A program made the position numbers and the translations under genes. A stretch of DNA of 64,000 nt from Pseudogymnoascus verrucosus (Eukaryota), in assembly GCA_001662655.1 (NCBI GenBank), contig KV460210.1; one strand, given 5' to 3'. How positions within the stretch are numbered: position 1 is the first letter of the stretch; each line of letters opens with the position of its first letter. Shown here one piece after another: positions 1,557 to 22,093 of the stretch. Under the pieces are notes generated by a model, which was not told the origin of the DNA, made no database searches, and saw only the letters and a list, made by a program, of their open reading frames with translations.

Positions 1557-3064
1557 GATGGTAAATATATTTTTATATGTTCTGATAGTTGAGGCGGGCA
1601 CACGGGTAGCAAGTTGGATGTAGGCGGGTACGGATGTATGGAGAAATTATAGTAGCGGGATCCTTGATATATATTCTTTTGAGGCCAAGTGGGTAGAGAG
1701 GCTATGACAACCTTATTATCTGTTGCCCGTCCGAAGTAGAGATTGGAGGTATCCATTCTCGTTTCCCATTACAGCGTCTTGAATTGACGATCTGAGAACT
1801 TTTGAAGCTACGATGATCCTTTCTGCTCGAATAGTATGTTCTTCAAGAAGACCTGCCTAATGGAACGACTCGGTGAGAAATATGCGGCACATGTTCCCAG
1901 ACCTCTGTGACCAGATTCTCGTATTCATCCCGTCCGCACTTTACTTGGAACGGGGCTGGTTTTAAATGCTATCGTTTCAAAGCAATCAACCCTTGGCCAA
2001 ATGCCATGAGACCAATTAAAGCTAGTCAAGTCTCCTGGAAGGAGCCCTAAGCTTCTTAAAAGTTGTAACGATCGGCAGATCTTCACTTAGTATACGTCAT
2101 GAAGCTGCTGACTGGTCGAATGCGGCTTACGCATGGCGCTTGGCGGATTCTATACTCGACCCAAGAGAGGAATTGAAGTGGCGCTCACTAGTATATACTC
2201 AATTCGGCTCTGTCGGCACAGCCCTCCAGAATTCTAAATTAAGTTGTTCTACGGCCCGCTAGCTCTATGTTCTTGCCGTTTGACGTCATTTGTACGCCTA
2301 ACGGTAACTAGGGTATAAAGCGAAGGATCTAGCTATTAGATCGGCACATGGTAATGATCTTATTATGCGGGAACAGCCGACGGTCAAGGAAATAAGCGTC
2401 CGAGTACGTATCAAATAAGAGAATGTCAACTCTCTGGCTTGTCGTGCTTGCTTCATTTGGTTTCATCATTGGCGTTCCTTCGATTTCAGCTTGACTACCT
2501 GGTATTGCCCCTGCTTTGTTGTGGTATCATGGGCGAGATGACGGGCCGCCAGTTGCGCGTTAAACTTCGACACAGTCATGTTTAGGTAACTCTAACTTGT
2601 TATCTTAAACCTGTATACACATTCTCGTGTATGTTCAGTCCTACCTATCGCTTTTGCCGTCATGACAGGCTCCACAAAAGAGGCCTTAGTAAACATCAAC
2701 AATCATTGTGAACCAAGCTGTTTAAAGCCGCTATACTCAAAAGGGATAGTGCTACTAGGTTTAGAGCGCCTTTTACTCCAGCTGACGAGTTCGGTGAGGA
2801 TTGTCATCCCTGTGGCATGGAAGAGGGCGTTTGGAAAAGCAAGTAGAAGCAAATTTGTGTCCCAGAATAATCTGGTAACAAGCTCATCTGAGGAAGGTGG
2901 GGCACATAAACGAATATCTGAGTACGAGATAGTTGACGATCAATGTATCGGCAGGATATATAAAAGGCAAGAGAAGGCGCTGAATTGGCTTACGATCAAC
3001 TCGGATTCCAGCTCATAATCACCACATCACTATTTATCTAAAATTCCACTTTACAACTGCAACA

Positions 3065-4265
3065 ATGGGAGACGTTCTTCAGGCCATCGGGTTTGTTAGC
3101 TCTGCGTTGGGAATCTTCGGCTTTTTTAAGGCCAACCTTCCTTCGAATGCACCCAATGGTGCTGTCATTCGAATGAAAGTTGGAAATCAGGACTATGACA
3201 GTGAAAGTTACGTAGGTCTTCTAGATCCGTATATGGGATGTTAGTAGCCACTGATATTTAAACTAGGGAGGAGGAATTGCGCGTGTGATCGGCTATGACC
3301 AGCAAAATAGAATTGTTGGCAATGCTTACAGTATGTTAGCGTCCAAGAATACAGACAGCCTCTGATATTAGATCGCAGATAAGAAAATCTCCAATGGTGA
3401 TTTCCAAGACATTACTCTTGATCAAGAGACAGACGGCATCCAGTCAAAATGTAAGTTATATTGATGTTTATTTGCTTTCAATCTTACGCAGTTATGGTTT
3501 GGCAATAAGCAGTTGTAAGCATCGTATCTAATTATCCTCATAGACATCGGTATCGTCAGCACTGGCGACGCCATCTGTCTTTCCTGGATAACTTTAAAAA
3601 ACCGAGATGGTGCAAGTGACTCTGCATGGATTGGCGATATTGGAAAGTCATGTGGTCAAAACTGGGCCTGGGGAAATCAAGAAGCTGGATATGTTCAGGA
3701 CACTGGCGAAAGAATCAGTCCATCATGCACGTGGCTAGACGCGGATCACACCAACGACATTGCATCAGGTGCTATGAAGATTAATTTTTCGGCCTATGCA
3801 GACAATTTGAATGATGCCATCAGCAGTGGCCGAGCATGCAGCGCGACATCGTTCTCGTACGGCGCTGGCGAAATCGATGGTACTTATTCCCACCAATCTT
3901 TACATGGTAACTAAGCTAGTGCTAATTTATGCTCAGGAGCCCCCGGGAAGAAGCGTGACGTTTCACTCAAGCCACGCCGTCCCGAATCGATGACCAAGCG
4001 CATTATCATCTCCACGGAAAATCCAACACATAATGCCACAGAATTGTGCACACACCCCATGAGTCATAGTTCAGATGTTGTTGGCTCAGATGGCTACTAC
4101 TGCAACATGGAGACCCGAGAGCTGCACCCGCTTTGTTCTTCGTTCAACGTTGACGGGTGTGTAACCGTCGACATTGAAAGCGGAAAGATCCAGAAGAGGA
4201 AATCACTCGGAAAGCGTACCGCTAATGTGCACTACCGGTCATACGAGAAAGTATCAGTATGGTAG
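3065..4265 (+). CDS. Uncharacterised 5-exon Cys-containing fungal protein with hydrophobic N-terminal helix and internal KKR site
   Basis: Manual splicing of four GT-AG introns gives a continuous ORF MGDVLQAIGFVSSALGIFGFF...DAICLSWIT...GDIGKSCGQ...CTWLDADH...GKKRD...ELCTHPMS...YCNMETRELHPLCS...VSVW; TATATAAAA at ~2956. Confidence 0.8.
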
Positions 4266-4796
4266 ACTGGGAGGCCAATTTTACAGATTGCAGAGCAAAG
4301 TCAAGGGGTGTGTAACCACACTATAGATGGTAGTCTGGGAACTTCGCGGCGCACCTATCTGAAGGGGCATACAGCAAACTCACTTGTACAAGGGTTGCTG
4401 TTGCATAATTACAATACATACTCTTAAAGTCTAAACACAAGAGCTCTGAAGATCCTCACTATCTCTCCTGCTCTACTGGTTGCGTTCTCTTATTTTATTC
4501 GACATGTACTCACCTCTATTTGCTCATGGGCAACTCCTATTCCCAGTCAAAACGACGAATAATGTTCTTCAGTTCAGATATAAAATCGACGTATCTACAG
4601 CATCTAAATTCCTACTATGCATGAGAGTCGTTAGGTCCAAGGACGATAACAGGCCTGCCATTTCCATTAACCGCCTTAGTATGTCAATCTAAACACAATC
4701 CCCCCCCCATTTCAGGCAAAGAAGGTATTGTCACTAAACCATCAATGGCCTACATATATCAATACTACTTGGCCCTTCTTTTTACAACCACGTAAT

Positions 4797-6494
4797 CTAC
4801 GTCATCCTCCTCCTGATACCCACCTCGCAACAAAACCCCTTCCTCAAGAACCCCTCCCAGGTCTCAAACCTCTCCTGATAGAGCTCAAAGTCATATCGCC
4901 GGACCAACGTAGCCATCGCGAGCGTCACTTCCATTTCCGCGACGTTGCGCCCCACGCACGACCGCGGCCCGTGACCAAAGGGCACAAACGCCTTCTTCTG
5001 GTCGTCGGTCAGGGACTCCCAGCGCTCGGGCCGGTACTGGTCGCTGTCGGCACCCCAGATGCTCTCGAGGCGGTGTATGGTGTAGTTGGGTACGGAGAGC
5101 ACAGTGCCGGGTTCGAACGTGCGACCGCAGATCTCGATGGCGGGGCCGTCGATGGGGACGACGCGGGGGAGGCCGAGAGCTGAGGTGGAGTGGATGCGCA
5201 TGCCTTCGTTCATGCAAGCTTTGAGACTGATGGATGTTGTTAGCTTGATCTGAATCCACGCAGGGAGGGAAGGATTCGTTACTATGGGAGGTTCTTGACG
5301 GTTTGAAAGGCGACCTCATCAGTTGGTGACAAAATAACAGTGTCGACTTCGGCTTGTAGCTTTGCAAGAACTCCTGGGCTCTTTAGAAGCCAATAGAAAA
5401 TGCTACGAATATTAGATTATCTGCCCAGAGATGGAAGATTGGAAAATCCTACCCAGTCAGAGTATTGGAGGTAGTGTCACTCCCGGCAATCAGTTGCGTT
5501 AGGGCCTCCGCCGTGAGTTCCTCACGCCCTAGAGGCTGACCTTTGACGTCCTTGCCCTCCATCAATCGAGTCAATATGTCCACACGTTCTGTCCCCTTCG
5601 TCGCCGTAGAAGCAAGGCGTTCGCCGACGCGCGCAATCGCAATCCCCGCGACCTGACTCCCGGAGCGGACGCCATTTCGTAGAAACGAATCAGGCAGGAG
5701 ATGGCCTATCTTCTTCAAAAACGGCAGGCAGCCCAGCACTGCAAAGGCTTCGCCGCGTCGGCTCAGCGCGTCGACGGCGTGCATGTACTTGGAAGGCCCG
5801 CCGGGATAGTCCATGTATTCAATGGTGTCCTGTCCATTCTTCAGCATCCCGAATGGCGAGCCGAAGGCGAGATCCCCGATGGTGTCAAAGGTGAGATAGG
5901 CAAACCATGGGAGACAGTCGAAGCGCGCAAACTTGGAGTTCGCTGGGGCTTTCTGGCAGATTAGGTCCCACTGACGGAGGAGCTCGTTCAGATTCTGATG
6001 CATATACTGCTCAAACTGCATCACGCTCTTGGCTGAGAAGGTATGGGCAACGATCTTGCGCTTGCGGGTGTGGTCGGCGCGGCTGCGAGTGCTGAAGAGA
6101 CCGCGAGACACTGCCACAAAGGCGTCATAAAAGTCGCTAACGTGGATATTAGTCATGTGGTATAGGAAATAGATTACGGGATATAGAGATCTTGCCTCTT
6201 AAGGAATCCATTTCCATGGCCATAGATGGCATTGATTGCATTGACATTGGCGATGGAGACATGATTAGGCTGGATTCTAACAAAATCTCCATGGGTCTTA
6301 TGTGCGTCGTCAACTGTAAGATAACGTCTCCCGAATCTTGCTTCCCGGACTAGCCAGAATCTCGTCAAAGCAGCCCATGGCGAAGCTGCCGGTATATCAG
6401 ACAAACTCCTATTCTGGAACAAGTATCCGCCGACATAGTAGACGACAAGGAGGCCGAGGGCCACCAAAGAAGCAATCATGACAAGAGGAAACAT
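4797..6494 (-). CDS. CYP53: Cytochrome P450, CYP53 (benzoate 4-monooxygenase) family, divergent member; 4 exons
   Basis: IYGHGNGFLK, DFYDAF, HTRKRK, AEALTQLIAGSDTTSN (I-helix), EGMR (ExxR), PERW, FGHGPRSCVG heme motif, EGFLRK; introns restore frame. Confidence 0.9.
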
Positions 6495-6749
6495 TGTGTA
6501 GGGAAAGAATACACAACGAAAGATAGAAAGCTATAGCCTATAATGACAAAAATGAAATCGAGAGGACTTATAATAATCAGTGATATGCTCATTGCCAACC
6601 CAGTGGGCCATCATATGCTCTATATCCACCCTTGCCGCATCAATTTACCAGAAGAAACTGGGGGTAGATCATAGCTACCCATCTAACGTCTCCCACACTT
6701 GTATACATATAGGTGATATTGACATGGATATCATCATAGTATCGGTATA

Positions 6750-6946
6750 CCCGGAATGGATGGTGCTCCCGAGTGGTGTGGGATGGTGTCGTGTATGCAC
6801 GGATGTTGCACCGGATAGTGCACCGAACCGGACACGGCGCTTTTTTCCGCCAATGCCGCCATGTAATACCGAGAGTAAGGAAGGCCCCCACTGATTTTAA
6901 ACGACCAATAAGGGTACGGCGCGGGGTAAGTACGGCGCGGGGTAAG
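6750..6946. promoter_or_regulatory. Divergent CYP53/pnbB-like promoter with clustered CGGA half-sites and a 16-bp tandem duplication carrying two GCGGGG (CreA-type SYGGRG) sites
   Basis: CGGAA 6752, CGGATG 6800, CGGATA 6812, CGGACA 6829; GTACGGCGCGGGGTAA at 6914-6929 and 6930-6945. Confidence 0.55.
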
Positions 6947-7226
6947 ATCTCCACAATGGAATCATAAGCCAGCCTCGTCTCTCGACATGCGATATGCAGG
7001 TCTACCGTGATCATTGCCGTGAGTTAACGTTATGTACAGCTGTGGATGTTGCAAGATGTAACTATAGCCGCAGTAACCTAATGATTTTACTTTTTTTCTC
7101 GTCTTATCTCGCGCACTATTTCAGCTTTCACGATATATATCCTTTCACGGCACTGATCAGTTTATTGTCGTGTTTCACCACCTTTGCGTTTCCCTTTCAT
7201 CGAATTCTTCGTAACATACCTCCAAC

Positions 7227-7836
7227 ATGTCAGCCGACGCCCAAACCAAGCCCATCCACCCCAATCAGCAGCGCCTCATCGACCTCGCACGCGAGTTCTT
7301 CGCCGAGGTCGAGAACCTGTAAGGCACGCATGTCTCCCTCTCTCGCTGACGCTAACCCCCCCCAAAGAACCCCCGGCAAAGACCTCGAGGCCCGTCTGAA
7401 CACCGATTACGGCCGCGGCAACCGCTACTATGATGGCTTCTGCTCGCTCATCCAGGGCGGGCTCACCAATAACGAGGGCTGGGTTGCCACCGACCCCCTC
7501 GATGGGCCCAAGTACCGCCGCTCCAAGGTTGCGTGGCCGAGCGAGGAGAACCGCTTCTTCAGCATCACCACGGTGTACATGGAGAGCATCGAAGAATACC
7601 GCGGCCAGTACCATCAGCATCCATATGGCGAGATTAACTGCGTCATCCAGCTGACGCCCGGCGCGGAGCTGATGGGCATGAATGGCTGGCAGGGAGAGGG
7701 CTGGACGAGCCCTGGCCCGGGGACGCACCATTATCCCGAGGTGAGGGGAGGGGCGCTCATAGCATTGTTTTTCTTGCCGGCGGGGAGGATTAGTTATGAG
7801 GCGAAGCCTGGGATGCCGCAGCCGATAAGCGTGTAA
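7227..7836 (+). CDS. pnbB: p-hydroxylaminobenzoate lyase-like protein (PnbB / DUF4863 family); 2 exons (7227-7318, 7368-7836)
   Basis: Spliced product MSADAQ...FFAEVENLTPGKDLEARLN...EGWVA...GPKYRRS...FSITTVYM...RGQYHQHPYGEINCV...GWTSPGPGTHHYPEVRGGALIALFFLPAGRISY matches the recalled PnbB/DUF4863 motifs; 49-nt intron GTAAGG...GCTAAC...AAG. Confidence 0.8.
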
Positions 7837-8092
7837 TACTTGACAATGCCATTGTCAGAATGGGGATGTTCTTGATTGTAGTAGCCTAGGCGAATTGGAA
7901 TTTAAAGGAAATTCACTTTAGAAATAGGTATACTATACGAACATTTTCTTTGGTTTTGTTTGGCAATAAGTAAATAAATATCACCCCTGGTAGTAGTTAT
8001 CCTGATCGCCTTGCTAATATGTGCACCGCGCCATCTTACACATAAACCACAAGGGGAATGAAAACTCGTACGTAGAATTCAACGCTCATAAT

Positions 8093-9999
8093 CTATGGCC
8101 TCCCCATGGCTTGCTCAATAACTTTTAAGATAGCCAAGCACTTCTCGTCCTCAAACCTCCTCGTCACAAGCTGCAGACCGATCGGCGCATCTACATACTG
8201 CTCCGGAGAATACAAGTCGTAATTGAACTTGTCCTGCTCATTCATCGGCAGATAAGTTGTATCCTTCACGTCAATTTCTGGGTCGACGACAGACACTGGG
8301 AACCCTACTCCTGGATATTCAAGCATGTTCCACTGGCTTGTATAGCTCCAATATTTTGAGTTACCATGGGGTGGCGCGCAACCAGGTGCCGCAGGGAGTA
8401 GGATGGCGTCAACAGGGTGCCCGTCATCTTTTCCTGTGCTCAACCATAGTTTGTTATACTTGAGACGGTATCTATCGCGACGGACCTTGAGCTGTTGAGA
8501 AGTGAGTGAGAAGGTATACGGAATGATAGAGGCAGTAGAAGACATACCGCACAAAGCGACTCAATACTCTGATACTTAACGTTTGGGTTATCCTTCACCA
8601 GCCATTCGGTGAGTGGTAGCATGTCCTCGCCACCTTCTGCGTTAACTCTATCCTCTGCTCGGCCACCATCCTCAAAATAGAGCGCTTGGGTAATGTTCCA
8701 GCATTCATCATGCTCTTCAGGAACCCAGTCTACGACTTCATGCCCAGCATCTCTGATAGACTTCGCTACTTCTCTTAGTGCTCGAGTTATCGGCGGATGT
8801 GGCGTGACGATCCTATCCGACCACATTACTGCAATCTTGAGCTTAGGCGGTAGTTTAACTGATCTCCACGGGATTGGAACAAGATAATCATCCTTTATCC
8901 ACGGTTCATAACTCAGATACGCATCCATAAATAGTGATAATCCAGACAGGGACGTAGACATGGGACCTCGCGTGGGCGGAATTCCTTCTTGTCCGAGCAT
9001 TGCTAGCTTTGTTCCCACTTTTGCCAGGCGACCAGGTGTGGGCTTAAAACCGTATATGCCCGTATGTGCTGCTGGACAGCGGATAGAACCGCCAACATCA
9101 CCACCGACACCCTGAATAATTAGTGATGACCAAGATATAATGTGTTGAGTCGGACGTACAAGTACACTGCCACGCATTGCAATCAATGCCGACTCGCCCC
9201 CCGAGCTTCCACCTGGGGTTAAGTCTGTATTGTGAGGATTGAGAGTAATTCCATATATATTAGAAGCTGTTTCCAGCTGCATAACTGCCTGTGGCTGGGT
9301 GGTACGTGCGTAAAAAACGCACCCAGCTTCCCAGAGAACGTCATTAACGCTGACATCTACGGCCTGTTGTTGTCCAATAAATGCAACATATGAGGCATGT
9401 GTTGTACATCCTTTCATGCCTTGGTGTTCTTTAACTGATATCGGAAGGCCATGGAGTGGTCCGATAGGCTCAGGGAGAGAATCGAGATATCTCGCCCGCT
9501 CAATGGCTCTCTCTGGAAGGAGTTCGGTGATGCAGTTGACCTGGATATTGATTAACTAACTATGCTTATAGAGTAATACGAAATATAGATGAGAAAGTGT
9601 AGTGAAGCCTCCTTGTAAGGATTATTTTGATGATTTATAACTCCATATCTAATATACTTAGAGAGGATTTACTGCAGCGCGATAACTTACAAGTTTCTGT
9701 GCTAGTGCAGCTCGACGCAGGAAGGCTCGAGTTACAGCCTCGCAGGTGTAGGACTTATCGCGTATTAGCTTAACCAACTCCGGCGCATCGAACGAGGTGA
9801 TTTTGAGTTCTTCATTAGTGAGAATATCATCTGCGATACGAGAGACATTCTTCGGAGGAGTATTAGGTATGCTGAATAGGGGAGGCTGGACGTCTGCTAC
9901 TGAAGCATCGCGAAAATGGAGAGCTTGGGCGATCAGCCTTGCAGACATGGAAGATCGTTCCTCTGGAGACAGCGATGATGCAGGTGGCGTTTTATCCAT
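8093..9999 (-). CDS. Amidase-signature family enzyme (acetamidase/general amidase-like); multi-exon
   Basis: GPLHGLPISVKEH (catalytic Lys), TPGGSSGGESAL, GGDVGGSIRCPA (Ser-cisSer), YTSQWNMLEYP, PIGLQLV; start ATG could be 9999 or 9948. Confidence 0.9.
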
Positions 10000-10194
10000 G
10001 TTAATGTTAGCCTTTGAGGGTTGTCGCTGGTGGCCTTAGCTTTTTTTTGGTTAACTGATTTGCGTCTACAACCAACTGTGGATTTAGAGCAGAATTATAG
10101 CTCCCTAAACACAATTAATCGATGAAGGCATTTTCGCAGATGATCGATACCTTGGTAATCGACACGCTGGTGAATTCCTAGCTTGTTTAGAAAG

Positions 10195-10250
10195 TGGCAG
10201 CGGATGTGTTCGGACATCGGATAAGGGCCGGGTAGGGACTCGGATGGGAC
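10195..10250. promoter_or_regulatory. Cluster of CGGA half-sites in the amidase/MFS divergent promoter
   Basis: CGGATG 10201, CGGACA 10211, CGGATA 10218, CGGATG 10241. Confidence 0.45.
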
Positions 10251-10869
10251 CTACGCACTGTACCTTACAAATACACGCTAGTTTTTCTAACCCACCGCAC
10301 CGGGTGGACACTACTGGCGAGACGAAGTATGTCCGGGTACATACTAGTATCATGGGGTCGTATTCCGTTGATTTTTGTTAGTATGGGGTAAATATAGAGC
10401 AAGGATGATCATTGTTAACTTCAGCCGTAGTTCAGATAAGGAGATCGGAATAGGTTACATACATGCGTTCATTAGAATGAGCTTTGTTGCTACAGTTTGC
10501 TCATGGCCCCCCTGTTCACCAACCTGACACATACCTTATCCGTCCCGACTTTGGTGGCTTTCTTAAGTCGCAAACTGACCCACAGCCCCATGGCATTATT
10601 GGATATCGTATGTGAGCTGGTCCCTTATCGGTTTTCACTCTTTTAGCACTAAGGGTCTGGTCTCGGATACAGAATCCCCTGCTATATTTCCCCTCATTTC
10701 TAATATCTAATCTTAATAATTGTACAGTATGTAGATTTCCTTGATAACTGTAACTAGAGTCCGCCACACTTTATTGAGCGGTCGTATTTTATTATATATG
10801 AGACTACGTCGGTCTCATCCTTACCTGTAGCAAGTTATTATCTATTCTATTCTAGCTAAGTTACTTAAA

Positions 10870-12586
10870 ATGTCTGCTACAGATCCGGATTTTATGGCGG
10901 TCGTTCCACCAAAGACGTGGGTTAGACTCAACAATCCTGCTATACAAAACTTTATCACTGGGCTTGTTATTGCCTGCTCAGCTGGTATTTACCTTGCCCT
11001 CACTGGTCTTGGCGCCGGTGGCGGCAAACCCAGCTCACAGTATCTTGCGTCGACATCAAACTCGTGAGTAACTTCTTGCATGTCCCAATCTTCCGATACT
11101 TGTCTAAATGTCAAAGGATCCTGTACGCCCTGTTTGCAGTCTCAGGATGGGTCTCAGCTGGGTTTCTGAATGCCTTCGGGCCTAAAATTACAATGTAAGT
11201 ATTGCCCCCCGATATACACGGATGTAACCTAACAAGAATTCACAGGGCTATCGGTGTTCTTGGATATCCTTTATATGCTGCAGGATTGTGGTATTTTGAT
11301 GTTTCCGGAAATGAGTGGTTTGCTCTTTTCGGTGCCGTCATGAACGGTATTGGAGCCGGCCTCTTGTTTACAGGTGCCGGGTTCGTTCAATTCGCATACG
11401 CCGAGGAGAAGGAGAAGGGCATGGTGAGAGATTTTTCAACTTCTATAGGCGAAAATATATTTACCCTCCTCCATAGTACATTTTCTGGCAACACACTATG
11501 CTCAGTGGCGGAGCCATTGTTGGAGCCATTGTTACATTTGCTATCAATTTCCACAGGGCGAAGCCGAGTGTTCCAACCTCAGTATATGCAATCTTCGTTG
11601 CAATCATGACTTCTGCCAGTCTTCTTGCATTGGCATTTATCATCTCGCCAAAGAAAATCATTCGCCATGATGGTACACACCTTGCGGAATTCAAGAAAAC
11701 TACTGTGAAGGAGGAGCTTGTAGGCATGTGGCGAGCAGCATCAACGCCCAAAGTCTTCCTCATGCTGTTCCCAATGTTTGTTTCTGAGTTCGCTCTTGGG
11801 ATCCAAACGAGTTTCAATGGCATGGCAACCTTCGGTGGCTCTTCTAGATAATCCATGCTAACTTTGTCTAGGATATTACTTCTCTCTCCGCACTCGAGCT
11901 CTGAATACAATTCTATACAACGTTCTCCAGATCATTCTTCCCGCCATCCTTGCAGCGCTCCTAGATGCACAATGGATCGGCATTCGCAAAGTTCGCGGAA
12001 TTATTGGCGTTATCTTCACTGCTGCCACGACGATCTCTCTCGCGACCGCCGAGCTCATTTATTTTAAGCAAAAGGTAGATCGGACGAAACCCGGGCCATC
12101 TATGGACTGGTCGGATCCAGGGTATGCAAACATCATGATTCTCCATCTGCTCTGGGGTGGCTGCTTCTGCTGCTGGACTTTCATGGTGCAGTGGATCATG
12201 GGTTCAATGTCGAACAAGCCAGAGGTCCTCTCCCGATACGCTGGACTATTTAAAGGCACCTCAGCTCTCGGTGTTTGCGTCGCCTTTGCAATTGACGCTA
12301 GGAAGCCACAGTATTGGGTTGAAATGGCTATTCATTTCGCGTAAGTAATTTATACATCTCTATAGATTAAGGGACATGCTGACATGATATGCCGAACAGT
12401 CTCTATATGGTCGCAATTTTCATCATGTTCTACGTAGTCTGGTTTTCTATTACAGATACAGACTATCTAAAGGAGGACGGGGTTATTGTGCCTACGAAGG
12501 TGGCTGAAGAGCTCATTGGCCCGGACGGAGTCTCTTTGGATACAAATAAGAGCTATCAGACTGAGTTCGTTGAAGAGAGGAAGTAA
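10870..12586 (+). CDS. UNC-93-like MFS transporter; multi-exon
   Basis: GIYLALTGLGAGGG, GYPLYAAGLWY, GIGAGLLFTG, YAEEKEKG, IIRHDGT, FSLRTRALN, SRYAGLFKG motifs; many hydrophobic segments. Confidence 0.85.
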
Positions 12587-13075
12587 ACGTATTTACGAGC
12601 AAAATTAATAATTTTGGTGCCTCGTTTCGTATAGTTTCAGACCCGTTTATTTATCTTAATCTAATCTATCTGAGATGTAACAATGGACCATACTCGCATT
12701 CTCAGTCATGCTTTGAACCTTTAAATTCTATTTTTGGCTAAACAGTGTAATTTGGGCCGTAGACTCTCCATTTTATTCCACGTCCATGTCTGTGGGAGGT
12801 GAGATGTGGGCAATGGTATCTCCAATTGGCTACTAGTGTAGAATTGGACTTGACCCCATTCGTACCCCACACCCCACATCCTCGGCCGTCATTTAGCTAG
12901 TCCAACCCAAGGCAAGGTAAGATAACGCGTGCCCCCGCCTCCGGTAGCAGACGCGGGGATCTAATACCTGGACAGACGTCCGCCAAACGCATCCAAACCA
13001 GTTTTTATTATTCTAATGATCTGTCCAGGAGACTAATTATATTATGTGAGGAAACCGTTAAATGCCTAATCATCT

Positions 13076-15657
13076 ATGCCCCGTCCCAAGGTCGACCCCG
13101 CATCTCGACGGCGGGTAGCGCGTGCTTGTTGCTATTGTAGGGTCTCGAAGCAGAAGTGCGATGGCCTGACGCCTTGCTCTCAGTGCGTGAAACGGAAGCG
13201 ACCAGAAGCCTGTAAACGCCTTGCTTCCGACGACAACAAGGAAGAAGCCCGCCCCCAGCCAGATCACGCATCCCCAGCCTTGAACCAGGCCGAACCATCC
13301 CCCCCAGGTATATCAGATGTGGTTACATCGACCCCGTCCGCGCCTGTAGCAATCTCGGGGGATAGCGAGACGCCGTCGTCGGTACCTTGCCCGAGAGGTT
13401 TGCAGGCCAGAACCACGGTGCCAGAGCTTCTTGTGCCTCGAATGTCTGGGATGATGTATGATATGAAAGGAAAAGCGGGTATGTATCGTAACTTGTTTAA
13501 ATCATCATCATATTCACGTACTCTGACACCCTGAAAATACAGTTTACCTAGGCAATTGTGCAACACTACACTTTCTACAGAATATCCAGCAGCTGATAGC
13601 CGATCAGTCGAACGACGTATTCTCATCCTTGAACTCGGATGTCGCCAATATGTCATTGATGGAGGAGCTACCTCCCTTCGAGCTACAAGATATGGAGCCT
13701 CATCTACCTAGTGATGTCGGAGACCTTAAAGACTTGGTTGATGCCTACTTTACTTCTGTGAGCCGCTCCTACCATGTGGCTAGACCACGCCGAGAAATGT
13801 AAAGGAGTCTGGGCCGCTAACATGAATATTCAGACTTGCGGTATTATTGATATTTTTGATGTAGCCCAGTTCATGTCTGAATTTAGGCACTGGATAAACG
13901 GTCTCATCCCCCCAAAATGTGGGACAGCTGCAGTCATTTACCTAGTCGTTGCCCTCGGGGCACAAGCAAGGGGATCAAGCCTGCTCGACAGTCGACGAGC
14001 ACAGTCGTTCTATCATCATGGGCGGCTGATAGCGCTCCAGGAACTAACTAACGATCCAACACTGGAGACGATTCAGGCATTTTTACTCATTAGCATGTAT
14101 ATGCTAGGATGCAGCCGAAGGAACGGCTCGTACTTGAATTTGGGAACTGCAGTTAGCGCTGCGAAATCTCTAGGACTCCACAGAGACGAGGCCAATGCAG
14201 CATTTAGTAAGGAGGAACAGCAATTAAGGTAAGTTTTGAAAGCCGAGGCTTTTTGGGTTTATCAGTTACTAAAATCATATCTCAGGTGTCGCATTTGGAA
14301 GACACTTCGCTTCCACGACTTATTTTTCAGTGCCATGATGGGCCGGACATCTGCCATATCAGCCCGAGAATCTAATATTTCCCATGCTCAACATCCAGTG
14401 CCAGAATCACCGAGCCTAGAATTCCTCCGCGCAATATCCCTTGAGGAATCCGCCCGTGCCTTCCTAATCATTGAGAGGATCATCAACGAAGTGTACACCA
14501 AGCGCACCGTACCTATAGCGCTCCTCCAATCAATTGGCGGCGAGTTGAAAGAATGGAGTTATCGTCTTCCTGCGGCCTTAAGAACGTCCGTCAATCCGCG
14601 GCATCCGAGAGAGTCGATCTTTCTCTCACGTGAAGTCGTGCTAAGAAATACGCACGTTGCCTGCTCGTATTATTTCGCGATGATGCTTCTCATGAGGCCA
14701 TTTCTTATTGCGCATCTCAAGGCTAAGTCGATGAGTTCAGGCCTGGGGCGGAGTGCTGCGGAAGAAAGAGAAACAGACGTGTCTCCCGAGATTTATGATG
14801 GAGCAATCGCCTGCATCGACTCAGCAATCTATACGCTGCAGTTGCTCCGCGAGCTTCTCGTCGCCGATATGCTCTTCAAAAACATGCCACTCGCAATGTG
14901 AGTTTCATGGATTGTCGACGCTTTGCCCCTTGAAACTAACTGAGAGAATAGTGCATGGATCTTCGTAGCAGCCCTTGTTGTCAGCTCATCTCACTTTGGC
15001 GGCATAGGCCCAGAGAAAGAAATTGAGCAAGCTATTCGGAATACCGACGAACTGCTACATTGCTTTGCTGCGAATAGCCCACAGGCGGCGCGTTACCACC
15101 ATATTGTGAAGAGGCTGTTTAAAGCTGGCGTAGACCACCAAAACAGGCTTAAACAGAGAGCCCGACTATCACGAACGACAGTGGTAGCAGAGCTGTTTCG
15201 ACTGAGCCCTAGAGAATCGACGGAGAATGCGACAGACGGGGTCGCTCCGAAGGATTCGGAGGATGAAGAGGTGGCGTATCAAAACCTTTGGTCCACACCA
15301 CCGGAGAACGAACTCCCAATCTACACATCTACATATAAGGGGCAAATGACTCCAGGGGCGTCGAATATAGCCCCGGATGGGGCGAGCGGCCAGTTTATTG
15401 GATCCGGGGGAACCTCGTTGCAGGGCGGCGAATACCCTGTTAGGCGGCAAATGCCCGGATTCGTTGCACAGACGCCTGGCCTTGCAGTGCACGAGCAGGA
15501 GGATGCCCGTGCTCGTATGGCAAACTTTGAACACTTGTTTTCCGGGCCGATTGACTTCGGACCTATGCTGGATCATAACTCCCTGATGCTCACGGGGAGC
15601 GGGAACGGGAACGGGAATGGGAATGGGAACGACATATTTGATTTTCATTGGGTTTGA
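13076..15657 (+). CDS. Zn(II)2Cys6 transcription factor with fungal-specific TF domain
   Basis: RVARACCYCRVSKQKCDGLTPCSQCVKRKRPEAC; middle homology region AVSAAKSLGLHRD...RIWKTL...D...SAMMGR. Confidence 0.9.
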
Positions 15658-16277
15658 CTGGACATGGAGGCGAGATCGCTGTAGGCGGCGGTAACCTGAT
15701 TACCGATGGCGGAGTGATGCCGCTCAAGGCTGCGCCGAGCGCTACTCTGCTCATCCTTGAGGCGGAAAGGGGCTCAGATTCCACGTTATGCCCATTGAGA
15801 GTAATAGACAAGTGGATTACAAGCATGTGTATGGCAGAGAATACGGGATGCCCAATTCTCTTGAGTATGTAACTATTCTCCCCTTAGATGGGAGAAAATA
15901 TCTTAAAAATGATGAGAACTTAAACCTCGAACGCAACCCCATTCAGCTTCAAACGCACTATTAGCATTCGTGAATAGTATGACCATTGTTAGGCATATGT
16001 TTTGTTCTATATCATCTAGGTCTATTATCTAAGTCTATTATCGAAGTACAGATCCTTATTGAACACGTACACAAAGGTTACCCTGACCCCCCGTACATCC
16101 TTCCTCCCTCCAAACCCCTTTTCCATACCTACACCGCGCCACCAACATTCCCAATCGACAGCGACCGACGCTTTGCAGCATACCGAGCACTTTACCGCAT
16201 AATTGCAGACCCAAAATCCCAGGACGACGTCGTGCACTAGTAGTATGGGAAGCTGTGGCGCGAAGTATTCATGACCA

Positions 16278-19200
16278 CTATGCCTTCCTCCCCTTCGGCA
16301 CCCGACAAAGCCAGTAAAGAAACACCGCAGCCGCAACATTGAACACAACGTATACCCACAGCAGACCAAAGTCTCTCCAGCGGGTAGCCCAGTCGACATT
16401 TATGCGCTCTAGAAATTGGTTGGTGCTGTTCAGCTGGCAATAATCACACTCGCCGGTAGCCTGCGGATCGCGAAGAAAACCACCCGCTACTGAGATATAT
16501 TCTCGCATGTACTCTTCGCAGCTCTGAGCCGCTGGTGCGAAGAAGGTCTGGAACTCTGTGCTGTCGCATGAGACTGGCGCTTGACCTAGTGTTGATGACA
16601 TGAAGCTTGAGACAAGATATGTGAATGGATTCACCTAATATCATGTTAGTGTATGCTCGTAAAATCCGGGATATGATACAACATACGCGATACATAAAGA
16701 TCCAGAACCGTGGCAAGGCGCTCGGCCCTGCTAGAATGCCACAGAAAGCGTACAGCATGATTGAAGCCAGTGTCGCGACAGCGCCCGCAATCGGTTCATT
16801 TGGTAAACCAGCAATAATCATATGTGCTAGCGAACTTGCAAAGAGAAACGCAGCAACGATAATCAGGAGTGTCTGGAAAGCACGGATGTTTACGGAATCA
16901 GTCCACTCAGCGTTTCGGTAGAGGCCAACTGGGTAATACCAGACAAGGAAGCAGAAAATGGCCATGAACTGTGTATAATGTGAGCCTGACATCCTTCAAG
17001 TGGGTTTTAGGTGCAACTTACAGCGTTCCAAGCCATCTCTACCGCAATATTAGAGAATACAAACGTTTGCCAAGCATATGTTTTTGACTGTCTTTCGCGA
17101 GCCTCGTAGAGCGTCCTTTGACTAACGAACATGGGCATGATCTGGAACAATAGCTGGATGAGGACGAAGAGAAAGATAAAAACGCCATACATCTGGTTTT
17201 GAAGTCCTTGCATGGTGTTGTCACCCTTGAAAAAAGAGAAGCCAATTAAGAGAGAACAACCGATTGTGAGGAGTGCCTTCGAGTAGATGTAAGATGGTGT
17301 CCTCCAATATTGTTGGGCGCAGCGCAGGGTGACTGCTCGTAGCTGGGTCATGAAGGTTGCTGCGAATTCTTGATGGCTTCCATGGGATGAGTCCATGGTA
17401 GCGGAGGGTTGGCTGGCAAGGTCTCGTAGTCTAGCAAGCTCTATTTGCACGTTGGTGTACTCTTTGCTCTCTTTCCAGACTGCAGGCCAGTCGGTAGGTG
17501 TATGGGCCCCGGGGGCTGCACCTATCGCCTCAAGCATATACTCGCCAGGGTTAGTGCCAACAGGGCATTCCGGTGCACCATTCCGAGCGAAATAGTCAAG
17601 GAGCACCTCGGAGTTGCGACCAATATCACCAAAGTAGACTGTACGACCACCTTTAGCAAGAAGTAGCAGTCGGTCAAAGCGTTGGAAGAGCAACGATGAT
17701 GGCTGATGGATCGTGCACAAGATGGCCTGGCCGTTCCGGGTAAGCTTTTCCATTAAGTCGCAGATAGACCAAGACGTCTGACTGTCCAGGCCAGATGTCG
17801 GTTCATCAAGAAACAGAAGGAGCTTGGGGCGGGCTGCAAGTTCGACACCAATGGTCAGGCGCTTGCGTTCTGTAGGCGATTAGTATGTGATGATGGAGCA
17901 GGTATAATAAAAAACGTACGCTCCACATTCAGACCTGATCCGGGTACACCAACAACAGCGTCTGCGTACTGTTCCATATCCAGCAAGCAGATGACATGGT
18001 TGACATATGACAGCCTCTCCTCGCGCTTGTATTCCGGTGGTTGTCGCAGAAGAGCCGAGAATTCAAGTGCCTCTCGTACCGTGGCAGTCTCTAAATGGAT
18101 GTCTTGCTGCATAGCATAGCCGGTTTTTCTCTGGAAAGACTCGTCCCGCCCTCGTCCGTCTACCAGCATGTTTCCAGAAATCACACCCATGGTGGTTCGG
18201 CTAGCAAGAACGTCGAGCAACGTGGTTTTGCCTGCGCCCGACACACCCTGTTAGTGAGTTAGCATTTATCTTACTCTGTTCTGCCTAATAAAGCTCACCA
18301 TGAGTGCTGTCAGAGTCCCTGGCTTGATCCAACCATCGACAGAGTCTAGGATTGTACGAGACTCGCCCTTGATTTCAACTTCATAGTTCACCTTCTCCCA
18401 ATGGAAGATCGATGCCTGCTTTTCTACGTTGTGCTCCGGGCGATCGCTATTGCTGATCTTCTCGCCATCGTGAGCAGACGCACTACCGGTTTCTTCATCT
18501 CCTGTGTCTCGTTTTCTCTTCGTCTTCATGCTGGATCGTCGGAAGACAAGGACTTCGCCCTTTGAGCGCTCCGAGGCAACAAGCTCACTCATCACGAGAT
18601 GTGCGATAAGTAAAGCGAATGTAATCACAACGATTATTCCGTAATTGCGCCATCTGTTTCCGTACTGGTACTGAAATGCAGTCTCAACAAATGCGGTACC
18701 ACTAACAAATTCCGCACCAGGCTGAGAGCCCTGGACAGCGCATGCTCTTTGATTTGCAGCAATATTTTCGTAGAAGGGGCCACTTGGAACAAATGCAGAG
18801 CAATTAAATTGACGTCCGTGAAACTCATTGACCATCACGCTTTCGAATCCATAGGAAATGGGGTTGATCCAACGAAACCAGCTCGCCCATCTATAACAAT
18901 TAGTAAAGACTTGACGAGAAGGAGGCTTGCAAGGTTAATGTCCTGCAAATATCTCCAAGGACCATTTTCCCACTTCAGTTGCAGTAAGAGGCCGGGAGAA
19001 TACGCACCCTCTCATATATTGTACAGGAATGGCGAATCCAGTATACATAACGAGCAATATAAGGATAATCGAACTTGGAGCCAGAGCTTGTGCGATGGTC
19101 TTCGTCATCGAGGCAAAAAGACGGAAAAACATGCTCATTGATAGTGTCATAGTAAAGGCAACAAGAAGGAAGAAAAAGAAGGGACCTGGCTCGCGGCGTA

Positions 19201-21263
19201 AGTTCGCCATGAAATATAGCGTAGAGTTGACAATGAGCGAATTCGTAATCTTGTAAGGCATATCCACTATCATCGAGGAGAATGCTTCGGCACTTGGGTG
19301 GTACAGGGCGTATCGGTTGTGCTAGTGTTTATATTAGCAGTGTAGTCGGCGAAGCCAATGTGCGTTTTCACCTTTTCAACAATCGTTCGTTTCGCATAAA
19401 GAGAAAATATTTCTAACAAGCTGCCAAATGCGTTGAGGAGGACCTGGTGCAGATATTAGTCACCCTATAGGGATTGAACGACATGCCTAAAAGGCAATGC
19501 GAGTTGGGAATAACTGACCATCATGAAGAGAACACCGCCACGCATAAAGAACGATTCTGTTGTTTCTTTCAGATTGTAGTATACGCTAGCAATAATGAGG
19601 GCCTCGAAGAAGTTGATCGTTAACATGGCTAATGGTACGGAAGGGTCGTTCTTGATCTTCCGAATGTCGCGCCACATGCAAAGTCTTATCTGTCCCCAGT
19701 ATGAAAGCGTGTATGGTGATTTCTGTCGCTGCTTTCGAGACTTCTCGAGTGTTCTTGCTTCAGCGAATTTTTCAAGGTTGTCTCCACTAAGTGGATGGTC
19801 CTGGCCGTACTTCTCAATTTCATGGAGCAGAATTTGCTTTTCGGGGCTCTCCTTCCAGCACCGAGAAAAGTCGTCCGAAGTCCGTGGTGTTGTGTTTTCA
19901 TACCCAGCTTTGATCCGGCGTTCTGATGGTGAGGTCATCGAAGTTAGAAAGTCCGGAGTGGTTTGTGACGCAGGACACTCGAAACCAAGGCGCTCGAAAT
20001 AGCTACGTGCGGCGTTCGCAGGACCAAAGAATATCTGACGACCCTCATATAGGACAATAACCTTGTCAAAGACCTATTGAAACTTAGTCGAGTTCTAATC
20101 TTCATCGGTGTATCACGAACCTCGTAAGCAGCTTGTGGCGCCTGGTAGATAGCAACACAAGTAGACGCACCAAACACATCGCATTGTGTACGCAATGTCT
20201 TGCAAAACTCGACTGAGTTGGCTGAATCGAGGCCGCGCGTGGAGTTATCCCAGCATTGCAACGGAGCAAAGCTTAGGGCAGCTTCTGCAATCGTCACTCT
20301 CTTGCGTTCGCCTCCGCTAACACCTCGTACAAAATCGTTGCCCACTTTGGTGTTCACAGTATGGCCCAGACCGAACATCGCCATGATGACCTACACGTAG
20401 TTAGCACAGAATACGAAGACAAGCATGGGCAGCGTACATCACGGAGGTGTTCGGCGTAGCATGTTCGACTAACACCACCAGGTATCAGACGAGGGGCACG
20501 AGCCAGGGCGGCGAAATAGAGCGTGTCCCCAACACTCAGTTCAGCAAAATGCGCGTCTACCTCCGCTGTGTAGATAGCCTCGCCCCTAAACTCGGTGTTC
20601 ATCTTCCTAGCTGGAATACCCTGAAAATTTAGGTAGGATTCTGGACTGACTTGAAAGCCATGGGTCTCGCCAGCAATCGTCTTCAGCAGCGTAGAGCATC
20701 CGGAACTGCTAGGTATTAGTGATGTAGGAAGATAATAATAGGCGGATGAAATACCCAGGTGGACCTAGAACGCAAAGCTGCTCGCCAGGAAGTAGCAGTC
20801 CGTCGAGATCTTGCAAGATCTCTATTTTCTGAGTACCGCGTCCGAACAATGATGGCAGCTTCAAAATGTAGTTGCCTACAGTAGACTGAAAATCCGTAGG
20901 AGATCCTTTGCCCCAAACATTGAGGCCTCTAAAGGCAACACCAGCAACGCGAGGAATGGCTTCCTGGCTGCTATAGCGCAAGTCATAGAACGCCTTAGCC
21001 CAGTCTCTCGCTCGAAACCGGTCGCTGTTAGGGTTTAATCGGCTATTCTCGGCAGCAGAAAATGGTGATTCAAGGTAATGTTGTTCTGCCTGGGACGTAA
21101 ACTTTCGGACAAGCTCGAGGACTTCCTGATCTTGTAGCCTCTCATGTTTGATCTCGTCCCTGTTTTCATGCTCCGAACTCGAGCTTGAATAGACGTTGAT
21201 ATGTTTAACGATTGGAGTTTCGAGACGAGATGTCTTCTCTGCAGCATCTGGCGCATCGGGCAT
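16278..21263 (-). CDS. Full-size PDR-type (ABCG) ABC multidrug transporter; many introns
   Basis: NBD1 [39 protein letters not shown]2 [36 protein letters not shown]; two TM domains. Confidence 0.95.
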
Positions 21264-22093
21264 GCTGAACTTGTCTAGGGCCCGTAGCGGTCCACGATGG
21301 ATATATCCTGAGCGATTTCAATAGCTAATAGGTCTCGTGAAATAGCACAGCAAGGGTATGATGATTATATGATTTCATGGAGGGTATATGCCTTATATTT
21401 GTCTGAAGATAGACGTTGTGAACCGACCTGAATGGAAGGCTGACGCAGTCGCAGCCGCGTCCTTTTAAATATTCTCATCTTCACACTTTGAAGAGAGCCC
21501 CCCTTCCGGAGTCTTTCAACCCCGAATGTCCAGTACCCAATCCTAGCTAGGCATGACACCATTGCAATGCCCAAATGCCAATGCGGAGCCTTCGCTGCGG
21601 CTAAGAAGCTAATTTGCATGTCGTAACAAGGCACCAGCCTAGAACTTCGCCTTCCATATCGTGCAAAGCTCTGCATTCATTCTGTCCGAATGTCCGTACG
21701 CTGGTACATAATCGATGGTCGTGTGTCCGGACTTTCGGCTTCCGGAGTCCGGCGAACCACCTCAACCTTTACACTAGTCAAAGAATAGTCAAGCGTTTTG
21801 TCTTGGGCCCGGGTGGGGCTCATTAGCGCCTGAACTCATTGACAGTACGAGTACGAGTACCAGTCACGTTCTAGCATTGCACGTATAATCCCATGCCCTG
21901 TATTACGAAGATTGAATGCTGAGAGACCCCCCTGAGGAGGCGTCCATTTATTCGCATATCTCTCGCAACTTCGGTCATCAGTATCCCCGGACTCAATCTC
22001 GATTTAGCAGCCAACTTTTATCATAGCACGTGAGCAACTGTAACCTCTTACGGAGGTGAAGAATACGTCAATCCGGGACACCCTTGAATCACG

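Follow-up and report, generated by a model that had tools for sequence, protein, structure and literature searches.

We analysed a 64,000-nt stretch of contig KV460210.1 of the fungus Pseudogymnoascus verrucosus (assembly GCA_001662655.1), which we call the window, and concentrated on five genes between positions 4797 and 15657 that had been proposed, from the letters alone, to form a cluster for the catabolism of aminobenzoates. The first two genes are divergently transcribed. A divergent CYP53-family cytochrome P450 (P450) of ~510 aa lies on the minus strand (4797..6494; Pfam p450 model and tblastn exon blocks) and a PF16155 cupin of the PnbB family of ~186 aa, a predicted 4-hydroxylaminobenzoate lyase, lies on the plus strand (7227..7836; Pfam). 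The sequence between them is a shared divergent promoter region of 732 bp (6495..7226). The second pair consists of an amidase-signature (PF01425) amidase of the fungal acetamidase/fatty acid amide hydrolase-like group with ~550 aa (8093..9999, minus strand; Pfam) and an UNC-93-like transporter of the major facilitator superfamily (MFS) with several exons (10870..~12630, plus strand; 3' end approximate), separated by a divergent promoter region of 870 bp (10000..10869). The fifth gene encodes a Zn2Cys6/Fungal_trans transcription factor (TF) and is a candidate PnbB regulator (13076..15657, plus strand; Pfam). Pfam matches and coordinates agree with the original prediction on the order and the strands of the genes and on their arrangement as two divergent pairs followed by the TF. 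Short GT..AG introns interrupt the open reading frames (ORFs) of the window.

The P450 is composed of the exon blocks 6494-6183, 6138-5452, 5416-5285 and 5225-4800 with the stop codon at 4797-4799, as determined by tblastn of the orthologs P0122 and P0123. Two of its exons matched the Pfam p450 model with E-values of 6e-29 and 9e-20, and the motifs AGSDTT, ExxR and FGHGPRSCVG are present in P0122, which is 93% identical to the window P450. For exon 2 we considered the best 120 of 1017 matches. Five of the matches listed are close relatives (86-95% identity over exon 2) and these come from Pseudogymnoascus and three Penicillium species only: two Pseudogymnoascus clusters with 94-95% identity over the exon, P. 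fimorum N7463_002618 (90%), P. concentricum N7517_001325 and P. coprophilum N7500_006436. After this close clade the matches listed fall to 62% or less (55-62% over exon 2) and most of them are labelled benzoate 4-monooxygenase bphA, as expected from the earlier description of the P450 as CYP53-like. The label bphA was given by the sequence sources and the comparison was made without a curated CYP53A1 reference. At the 3' end of the P450 gene the contigs of two related strains both break at 4487-4490, with ~89-94% identity on the left and ~98.8% on the right through position 20000. In addition the model P0121 of another strain fuses a P450 with an MFS part that has no match anywhere in the window. 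Hence the flank past the 3' end of the P450 differs between Pseudogymnoascus strains.

Across their full length the P450 paralogue and the canonical bphA-type proteins share 54-59% identity, compared to 61-71% among canonical proteins of different classes and 88% between the Pseudogymnoascus and Penicillium paralogues. We computed a tree with 42 rows (40 of the 120 listed matches, the window protein and an outgroup). The canonical sequences were grouped by class (Leotiomycetes, Sordariomycetes, Eurotiomycetes and Dothideomycetes/Lecanoromycetes). The window clade was placed separately on a stem of 0.61 with a support of 90 in the Shimodaira-Hasegawa-like approximate likelihood ratio test (SH-aLRT), and its internal path lengths were 0.18-0.25 despite the fact that it spans two fungal classes. 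The 107 canonical sequences aligned have 200 columns with at least 95% conservation. In 21 of these a replacement is fixed in all four paralogues, and the I-helix, ExxR and haem-binding motifs are unchanged. Judging by their position, several of the 21 replaced columns appear to lie in the usual substrate-recognition-site regions. With 54-59% identity and intact motifs we assign the protein to CYP53 by the 40% rule. It is not an ortholog of the single conserved ascomycete CYP53A/bphA, and the separate clade, the identity values and the replaced columns all support the idea that it is a paralogue rather than the housekeeping enzyme. According to PMC4164535 most ascomycetes have one, highly conserved, CYP53A, which makes a second and divergent CYP53 lineage unusual. 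Because of the replaced invariant positions and the long stem we argue that the function of the P450 has probably changed.

The second gene of the pair starts with an ATG at 7227 and has two exons (7227-7318 and 7368-7836, with an intron at 7319-7367 and the stop at 7836). Its match to PF16155 covers profile positions 12-153 of 153 with an E-value of 1.4e-62 and 210.6 bits (cut-off 26.9), so that the designation PnbB-like can be retained. Over exon 2 it shares 96% identity with a protein of Pseudogymnoascus sp. 23342-1-I1. Among the 120 matches listed the closest one outside Pseudogymnoascus is P. fimorum N7463_002617 with 85%, and the best 120 of 915 matches show that PF16155 proteins occur throughout the Ascomycota at 66-85% identity. 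There is no NCBIfam model for PnbB, a PDB sequence search returned no solved structure, and our literature searches found no publication on the function of a fungal PF16155 protein. The AlphaFold model, computed from an alignment of 20 fungal sequences, has a predicted local distance difference test score (pLDDT) of 85 and displays a cupin barrel with three N-terminal helices; among solved structures its fold is closest to metal cupins, for example TM1459 and the dimethylsulfoniopropionate lyase DddQ.

The PnbA/PnbB pathway for 4-nitrobenzoate has been described in strains of Pseudomonas, Ralstonia and Comamonas. It combines a nitroreductase with a 4-hydroxylaminobenzoate lyase, and its chemistry is summarised in PMC9590159. 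We aligned the 20 fungal proteins with 41 PnbB ORFs from nitroreductase-linked bacterial loci. Conservation reaches at least 95% in both sets at 51 positions, among them H113-x-H115-x3-E119, H151/H152, the FFLPAGRI motif and several Arg, Tyr and Trp residues. Just four differences are fixed between the sets, all of them conservative. From the cupin motif, H113, H115, E119, H151 and H152 are putative metal-binding residues. Given the 51 common positions and the four conservative differences, the fungal PnbB is predicted to catalyse the reaction of its bacterial counterparts on a substrate of the same kind, and there is good evidence that it likely retains the lyase chemistry of its bacterial relatives.

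We then asked how far the two genes of the pair belong together. In P. fimorum the PnbB and the P450 have consecutive locus tags (N7463_002617 and N7463_002618) on an 8.02-Mb contig. The PnbB tree has 52 rows, namely 47 named matches of the 120 listed, the window protein and four bacterial outgroups. In this tree the window and Pseudogymnoascus sequences join P. fimorum with an SH-aLRT support of 99. The group is nested in a clade made up mainly of Aspergillus, Penicillium, Talaromyces and Trichoderma sequences, apart from the four other Leotiomycetes. An approximately unbiased (AU) test rejected the monophyly of the Leotiomycete sequences with a p-AU of 0.004, a result that is weakened by the fact that the test was chosen after the tree had been seen. 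The G+C content at third codon positions (GC3) is 0.66 for the P450 and 0.81 for PnbB, against 0.45-0.54 for eight of the nine other genes in the window. Within this range the amidase has 0.45, the MFS gene 0.49, the TF 0.53 and the remaining genes 0.50-0.54; the exception, with 0.69, is a second P450 near a transposase remnant. Taken together, the trees, the AU test and the GC3 values suggest that the P450-PnbB pair moved horizontally, as a two-gene cassette, between Pseudogymnoascus and a few Penicillium species. Within the same Eurotiales-dominated clade we also found three Trichoderma PnbBs that do not group with the other Sordariomycetes, a placement that hints at further gene transfers.

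We also checked the location of the canonical bphA gene. In all six species with single-member, single-contig records for both families (P. argentinense, Rhizodiscina, Pseudovirgaria, Tricladium, Halenospora and Lophiotrema) bphA and PnbB were found on different contigs. P. herquei was left out of this comparison as its clusters have several members.

To see which genes usually accompany PnbB we scanned bacteria with one genome per species and obtained 80 PnbB loci with 43-57% identity. Neighbours within 4 kb were identified by GC3-guided gene calling and neighbour clustering. A gene of the nitroreductase family stood beside PnbB in 56 of the 80 loci with a median gap of 57 nt, which is the classical pnbA-pnbB arrangement. 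LysR regulators were found within 4 kb in 60 loci and MFS transporters in 30. At the bacterial metagenome loci L039, L051, L061 and L066 the place of the nitroreductase is taken by a GST_C_3 protein and an HpaB-type or Rieske oxygenase, which follow PnbB. An apparent fusion of PnbB and nitroreductase in L065 and L074 was rejected, since the two are separate adjacent ORFs. The window itself had been reported to lack a nitroreductase and we can confirm this: no ORF of at least 120 aa matched PF00881 in the Pfam search, and tblastn with 57 bacterial nitroreductase ORFs gave a single match, inside PnbB itself.

A search of metagenome contigs with the PnbB alignment yielded 80 loci that were retained for analysis. 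Of these, 18 are long and have fungal-type composition (GC 0.46-0.55) and domains; they collapse to 14 neighbourhoods. With Pfam and tblastn we detected no nitroreductase near PnbB in any of the 14. An FMO-type flavin monooxygenase (FMO) was present in three of them (L008, L019/L020 and L030), within 1-4.3 kb of PnbB. In L008 the FMO (2991-4805, minus strand) and PnbB (5811-6269, plus strand) are arranged head to head, 1 kb apart; in L019 the FMO lies at 5944-7677 and PnbB at 1143-1622, both on the plus strand; in L030 the FMO lies at 5956-7674 on the minus strand and PnbB at 10001-10634 on the plus strand. The three proteins belong to one subfamily with 47-51% mutual identity over their full length and are placed by the protein atlas among fungal FMO families. 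FAD_binding_3 hydroxylases and MFS genes each occurred in two of the 14 neighbourhoods and a P450 in one (L016). The FMO-PnbB pairing is more general than the P450-PnbB pairing. A quinone-oxidoreductase-like zinc alcohol dehydrogenase gene is divergent from PnbB in two neighbourhoods (L016:8294-9427 and L027:21-1433, both on the minus strand; 42% mutual identity). In L033, L040 and L043, which represent one fungal lineage, PnbB lies between an MFS gene and a pair formed by an acyl-CoA dehydrogenase and a family III CoA-transferase. M20 peptidases near PnbB in L033 and L040 were considered as p-aminobenzoyl-glutamate hydrolases and discarded, as they belong to the carbamoylase/allantoate amidohydrolase group.

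The conserved lyase core and the family membership of the P450 could also be explained without an oxidative link between the two enzymes. The P450 would then serve as an additional benzoate 4-hydroxylase or as a replacement for the usual one, the lyase would use 4-hydroxylaminobenzoate formed from 4-nitrobenzoate by unlinked general nitroreductases, and both genes would be located together on account of a common protocatechuate branch and a common regulator. This fits the 54-59% identity of the P450 to canonical CYP53 proteins with all catalytic motifs kept and a lyase core identical to that of the nitroreductase-linked bacterial PnbBs. Fungal catabolic genes are also often unlinked, so a missing neighbour nitroreductase proves little, and no canonical bphA of Pseudogymnoascus is named among the best 120 of 1017 P450 matches. 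However, the 21 replaced canonical-invariant positions and the long stem argue for a changed P450 function. Moreover, bphA and PnbB lie on separate contigs in six of six species and therefore protocatechuate supply alone does not unite the two families, and the recurrent FMO partner points to an oxygenation step before the lyase. On balance we regard this explanation as unlikely.

A further possibility is that the PF16155 protein acts in benzoate metabolism apart from hydroxylamines, for instance by rearranging or detoxifying a reactive product of the P450. PnbB is accompanied by ring hydroxylases at several loci: HpaB or Rieske oxygenases in L039, L051 and L061, a phenol hydroxylase in L016, where it stands next to PnbB with the non-CYP53 P450, and a FAD_binding_3 protein in L041. 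PF16155 cupins also occur inside benzoyl-CoA oxidation operons according to PMC6449761, and a role of this kind is suspected for them. On the other hand, the 51 positions shared with nitroreductase-linked bacterial PnbBs, with four conservative differences, speak against such a role, as does the nitroreductase linkage of the closest bacterial relatives in 56 of 80 loci. We consider it very improbable.

The TF reached 53.6 bits with the Fungal_trans model (cut-off 23) and 20.3 bits with Zn_clus, just below the cut-off of 21. The six-cysteine pattern CX2CX6CX5CX2CX8C is intact in the translation, and by this cluster and the middle domain we classify the predicted protein as a Zn2Cys6 fungal transcription factor. 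We searched the 80 metagenome loci by tblastn with 14 exon translations from the window. The P450 matched in L016/L017 only and an ortholog-grade relative of the TF was found in L020 only, with 40-47% identity over three segments (E-values from 1e-17 to 1e-48). The end of this gene, the sole match of the TF, lies 1.6-2 kb from PnbB on its upstream side; the contig also carries an FMO. Within the window, tblastn with the TF (E <1e-3) returned none of the three further Zn2Cys6-type genes located in the other 48 kb. By a rough estimate the chance of finding a relative of one particular TF near PnbB in one of 14 neighbourhoods with ~5 genes each is below 1%, and for this reason we regard the TF as PnbB-linked. 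Lying 5 kb from the P450-PnbB pair, it is probably the regulator of the pair.

Both promoters were searched for sequence motifs. The P450-PnbB promoter has a cluster of CGG half-sites at 6743-6860, which includes a tandem of two overlapping, near-identical 14-mers, CGGATGTTGCACCG and CGGATAGTGCACCG, at 6800-6825. No other exact copy of either 14-mer occurs in the window, and the amidase-MFS promoter lacks any equivalent of the tandem. Both divergent promoters contain CGGATG, CGGATA and CGGACA sites clustered on one strand, and the amidase-MFS promoter contains the densest CGGA[TC][GA] cluster of the window with five sites in 130 bp from 10201, a density equalled in 1 of 300 random placements. 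As the motif was defined after both promoters had been viewed, these clusters are only a lead. The two promoters have no common k-mer of 11 or more nucleotides.

The grouping of P450 and PnbB exceeds chance, and that of TF and PnbB probably does so too. If the P450 and PnbB were instead functionally unrelated neighbours that were carried on one transferred fragment, the rest of the grouping would be due to chance. The adjacency was seen directly in one non-Pseudogymnoascus genome, and such mixtures are easily found in a window that is dense in transporters, TFs and oxidoreductases throughout. Against this, the head-to-head order with the common 732-bp promoter was kept through the class-level transfer, both proteins are strongly conserved with 85-90% identity between classes, both families act on para-substituted benzoates, and a repeated occurrence of the TF next to PnbB would be expected by chance in less than 1% of cases at a rough estimate. 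We therefore give very little credence to a purely accidental association.

The amidase matched PF01425 with an E-value of 1.3e-66 and 225.9 bits, its translation contains the GGSSGG signature, and its closest chains of known structure are 8wv2_A and 6kvr_A. The gene was also supported by tblastn with P0242. P. verrucosus VE01_01749 matches the amidase exon with 95% identity. The 120 matches listed track taxonomy, with 61-71% identity in other Leotiomycetes and ~50% elsewhere, and the lone Penicillium match among them reaches 54%. By this distribution the amidase is evidently a vertically inherited, resident gene of the Leotiomycetes. The MFS gene has its ATG at 10870. The exons of the window stayed below the UNC-93 (PF05978) threshold with 16.4 bits versus 22.9, which was passed by all six full-length homologues (32-41% identity to one window exon). 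In the tblastn search neither the amidase nor the MFS transporter had a relative at the 80 metagenome PnbB loci.

To study transcription and synteny within the genus we used sequencing runs. None of the listed runs is on record as RNA; the run X15 was guessed to be RNA, and it contains spliced contigs nearly identical to the window. Stretches without X15 cover are not evidence of silence, and the assembled contigs cannot rank expression. For PnbB we observed a spliced contig (7178-7318^7368-7948) with GT..AG ends, for the amidase two joints bounded by CT..AC, which reads as GT..AG on the minus strand, for the MFS gene a spliced contig (12134-12340^12400-12628) and for the TF a joint from 14897 to 14952 (intron 14898-14951) with GT..AG ends. 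Thus four of the five genes, PnbB, amidase, MFS and TF, are transcribed. Contigs of two related strains span all five genes at ~98.8% identity (X3 record 10, 4490-17045, and X4 record 14, 4490-20000), which shows conservation within the genus only.

These results bear directly on the five-gene pathway that had been put forward. In its full form the MFS transporter would import an amide such as acetamidobenzoate, aminobenzamide, p-aminohippurate or p-aminobenzoyl-glutamate, the amidase would release 4-aminobenzoate for N-hydroxylation by the P450, the lyase would yield protocatechuate and the TF would control all genes. The amidase and MFS genes are located between PnbB and a TF whose relative is PnbB-linked elsewhere, CGG half-site clusters occur in both divergent promoters (with a motif chosen post hoc), the five genes are bridged by contigs in two related strains, and spliced transcripts of four of them were found in one run. 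However, the distribution of the amidase is vertical with no close Penicillium match among the 120 listed, and relatives of the amidase and the MFS transporter are found near PnbB in none of the 80 metagenomic loci, nor PF01425 in any of the 14 fungal neighbourhoods. The GC3 values of both genes (0.45 and 0.49) are of the resident type and unlike those of the P450-PnbB pair, and the amidase falls in a wide group of general amidases that offers no hint at a substrate. We consider the full pathway to be quite unlikely, and the view of the five genes as one conserved cluster is not supported. The synteny check in other fungi upheld the P450-PnbB linkage (P. fimorum) and the TF-PnbB linkage (L020) and failed for the amidase and the MFS gene. 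What survives of the original prediction is a two-gene core and probably its regulator. The amidase and the MFS transporter are best treated as resident neighbours, recruited or not, with their position as the sole tie to the pair, although they could supply substrate from an amide conjugate.

In our preferred reading the locus is a composite, in which a mobile module of a neofunctionalised CYP53-family P450 and a PnbB-type lyase sits among resident genes and would provide an oxidative route to the substrate of the lyase. We estimate the probability of this reading at roughly 0.4. The conserved core of the lyase points to an aryl hydroxylamine with a carboxylate as its substrate. The ancestral CYP53 enzyme holds benzoate with its para carbon over the haem. 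The window P450 would bind a para-substituted benzoate as CYP53 binds benzoate and would oxygenate the para substituent instead of C4, and the most parsimonious case would be the N-hydroxylation of 4-aminobenzoate. The lyase would then turn 4-hydroxylaminobenzoate into protocatechuate and ammonium, feeding the beta-ketoadipate route. An oxidative source of the hydroxylamine is plausible on sequence grounds because the P450 is a CYP53 paralogue, the lyase core is kept, the two genes are adjacent in P. fimorum as well, and the fungal loci are devoid of nitroreductases but in several cases have monooxygenases. The substrate, the N-hydroxylation and the regulation are what we infer from these observations.

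The recurrent fungal neighbours of PnbB that might form the hydroxylamine are monooxygenases of two unrelated classes, the FMOs and the CYP53 paralogue, and FMOs are classical N-oxygenases. In nature 4-aminobenzoate is much more abundant than 4-nitrobenzoate, which would also explain the wide and strong conservation of the lyase in fungi. A more general proposal would be that ascomycetes deaminate aromatic amines, above all the folate fragment 4-aminobenzoate, with an N-oxygenase (a CYP53 paralogue in Pseudogymnoascus and some Penicillium, an FMO in further lineages) and a PnbB cupin, the P450-PnbB pair being a two-gene cassette that spreads between classes. Such a route is not known from any organism. 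We put this forward tentatively, as a somewhat unlikely but serious possibility.

Several observations weigh against the oxidative interpretation of the composite locus. The adjacency of P450 and PnbB outside Pseudogymnoascus rests on the locus tags of one species, P. fimorum. The single P450 found next to PnbB among the fungal neighbourhoods, that of L016, was ruled out as a CYP53 with 30-37% identity to the window P450, and in 10 of the 14 neighbourhoods there is no oxygenase beside PnbB at all. In X15 the P450 is represented by an unspliced 254-nt piece alone, which is not evidence of transcription. If Pseudogymnoascus is without a canonical bphA, as the best 120 of 1017 matches would allow, the P450 may simply be its benzoate 4-hydroxylase. 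An aromatic amine could also bind the haem iron of the P450 as an inhibitor and not be oxidised. CYP53 enzymes are known to C-hydroxylate and O-demethylate benzoates, as PMC4164535 also describes. Our literature searches found no precedent for N-hydroxylation by a CYP53, and nothing pertinent on CYP53 with aminobenzoate or on Pseudogymnoascus with CYP53. Finally, the PF16155 proteins in the bacterial benzoyl-CoA (box) operons are found without nitrogen chemistry (PMC6449761).

Compared with the known systems the proposed module has both familiar and new features. Like the bacterial PnbB the fungal lyase belongs to PF16155, is 43-57% identical to the bacterial members with 51 common positions, and would be expected to release protocatechuate and ammonium. 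Unlike in the bacterial PnbA/PnbB system, the partner is a P450 here and an FMO elsewhere, with no nitroreductase at the fungal loci examined; the window has a Zn2Cys6 regulator, whereas 60 of the 80 bacterial loci have a LysR regulator; and the entry would be oxidative from the amine in fungi, while it is reductive from the nitro compound in bacteria. The P450 shares its family, length and catalytic motifs with CYP53A/BphA but differs in its separate clade with a long stem, its sporadic distribution and its linkage to PnbB. The conversion of 4-aminobenzoate to 4-hydroxylaminobenzoate exists in nature and is performed by AurF-type arylamine N-oxygenases in aureothin biosynthesis. AurF is a biosynthetic di-iron enzyme that proceeds to the nitro compound, whereas a P450 is proposed here and the hydroxylamine would be consumed catabolically. 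The PF16155 cupins of box operons resemble the window arrangement in that a PF16155 gene is linked to genes for the oxidation of benzoate with no nitroreductase present, and differ from it in that the oxygenase is the bacterial BoxAB acting on a CoA thioester (PMC6449761).

Downstream of the TF lies a PDR-type ABC transporter (16025-21317, minus strand), and the remainder of the window contains many transporters, TFs and oxidoreductases. We found no polyketide synthase, nonribosomal peptide synthetase or terpene synthase domain in window ORFs of at least 120 aa, and a reading as a secondary-metabolite cluster was set aside. The second P450 (57995-59341, minus strand) is unrelated to the first with ~29% identity and has a GC3 of 0.69; it is adjoined by a remnant of a Tc5/pogo-type transposase DNA-binding domain (56486-56908). 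Just 3' of the TF stop the segment 15750-15866 showed a summed contig depth of 600-900x in related strains with many loose ends and looks like a dispersed short repeat.

The P450-PnbB pair appears to be a clean case of a two-gene metabolic module that moves between fungal classes. The hypothesis that the P450 supplies the lyase is directly testable with two recombinant proteins. If the oxidative route from arylamines to protocatechuate is true, it would assign a function to the widespread orphan family PF16155, constitute a new entry into the beta-ketoadipate pathway and represent the first role of a CYP53 enzyme other than C-hydroxylation. It would also make available a compact two-gene cassette for the biocatalysis and bioremediation of aromatic amines.

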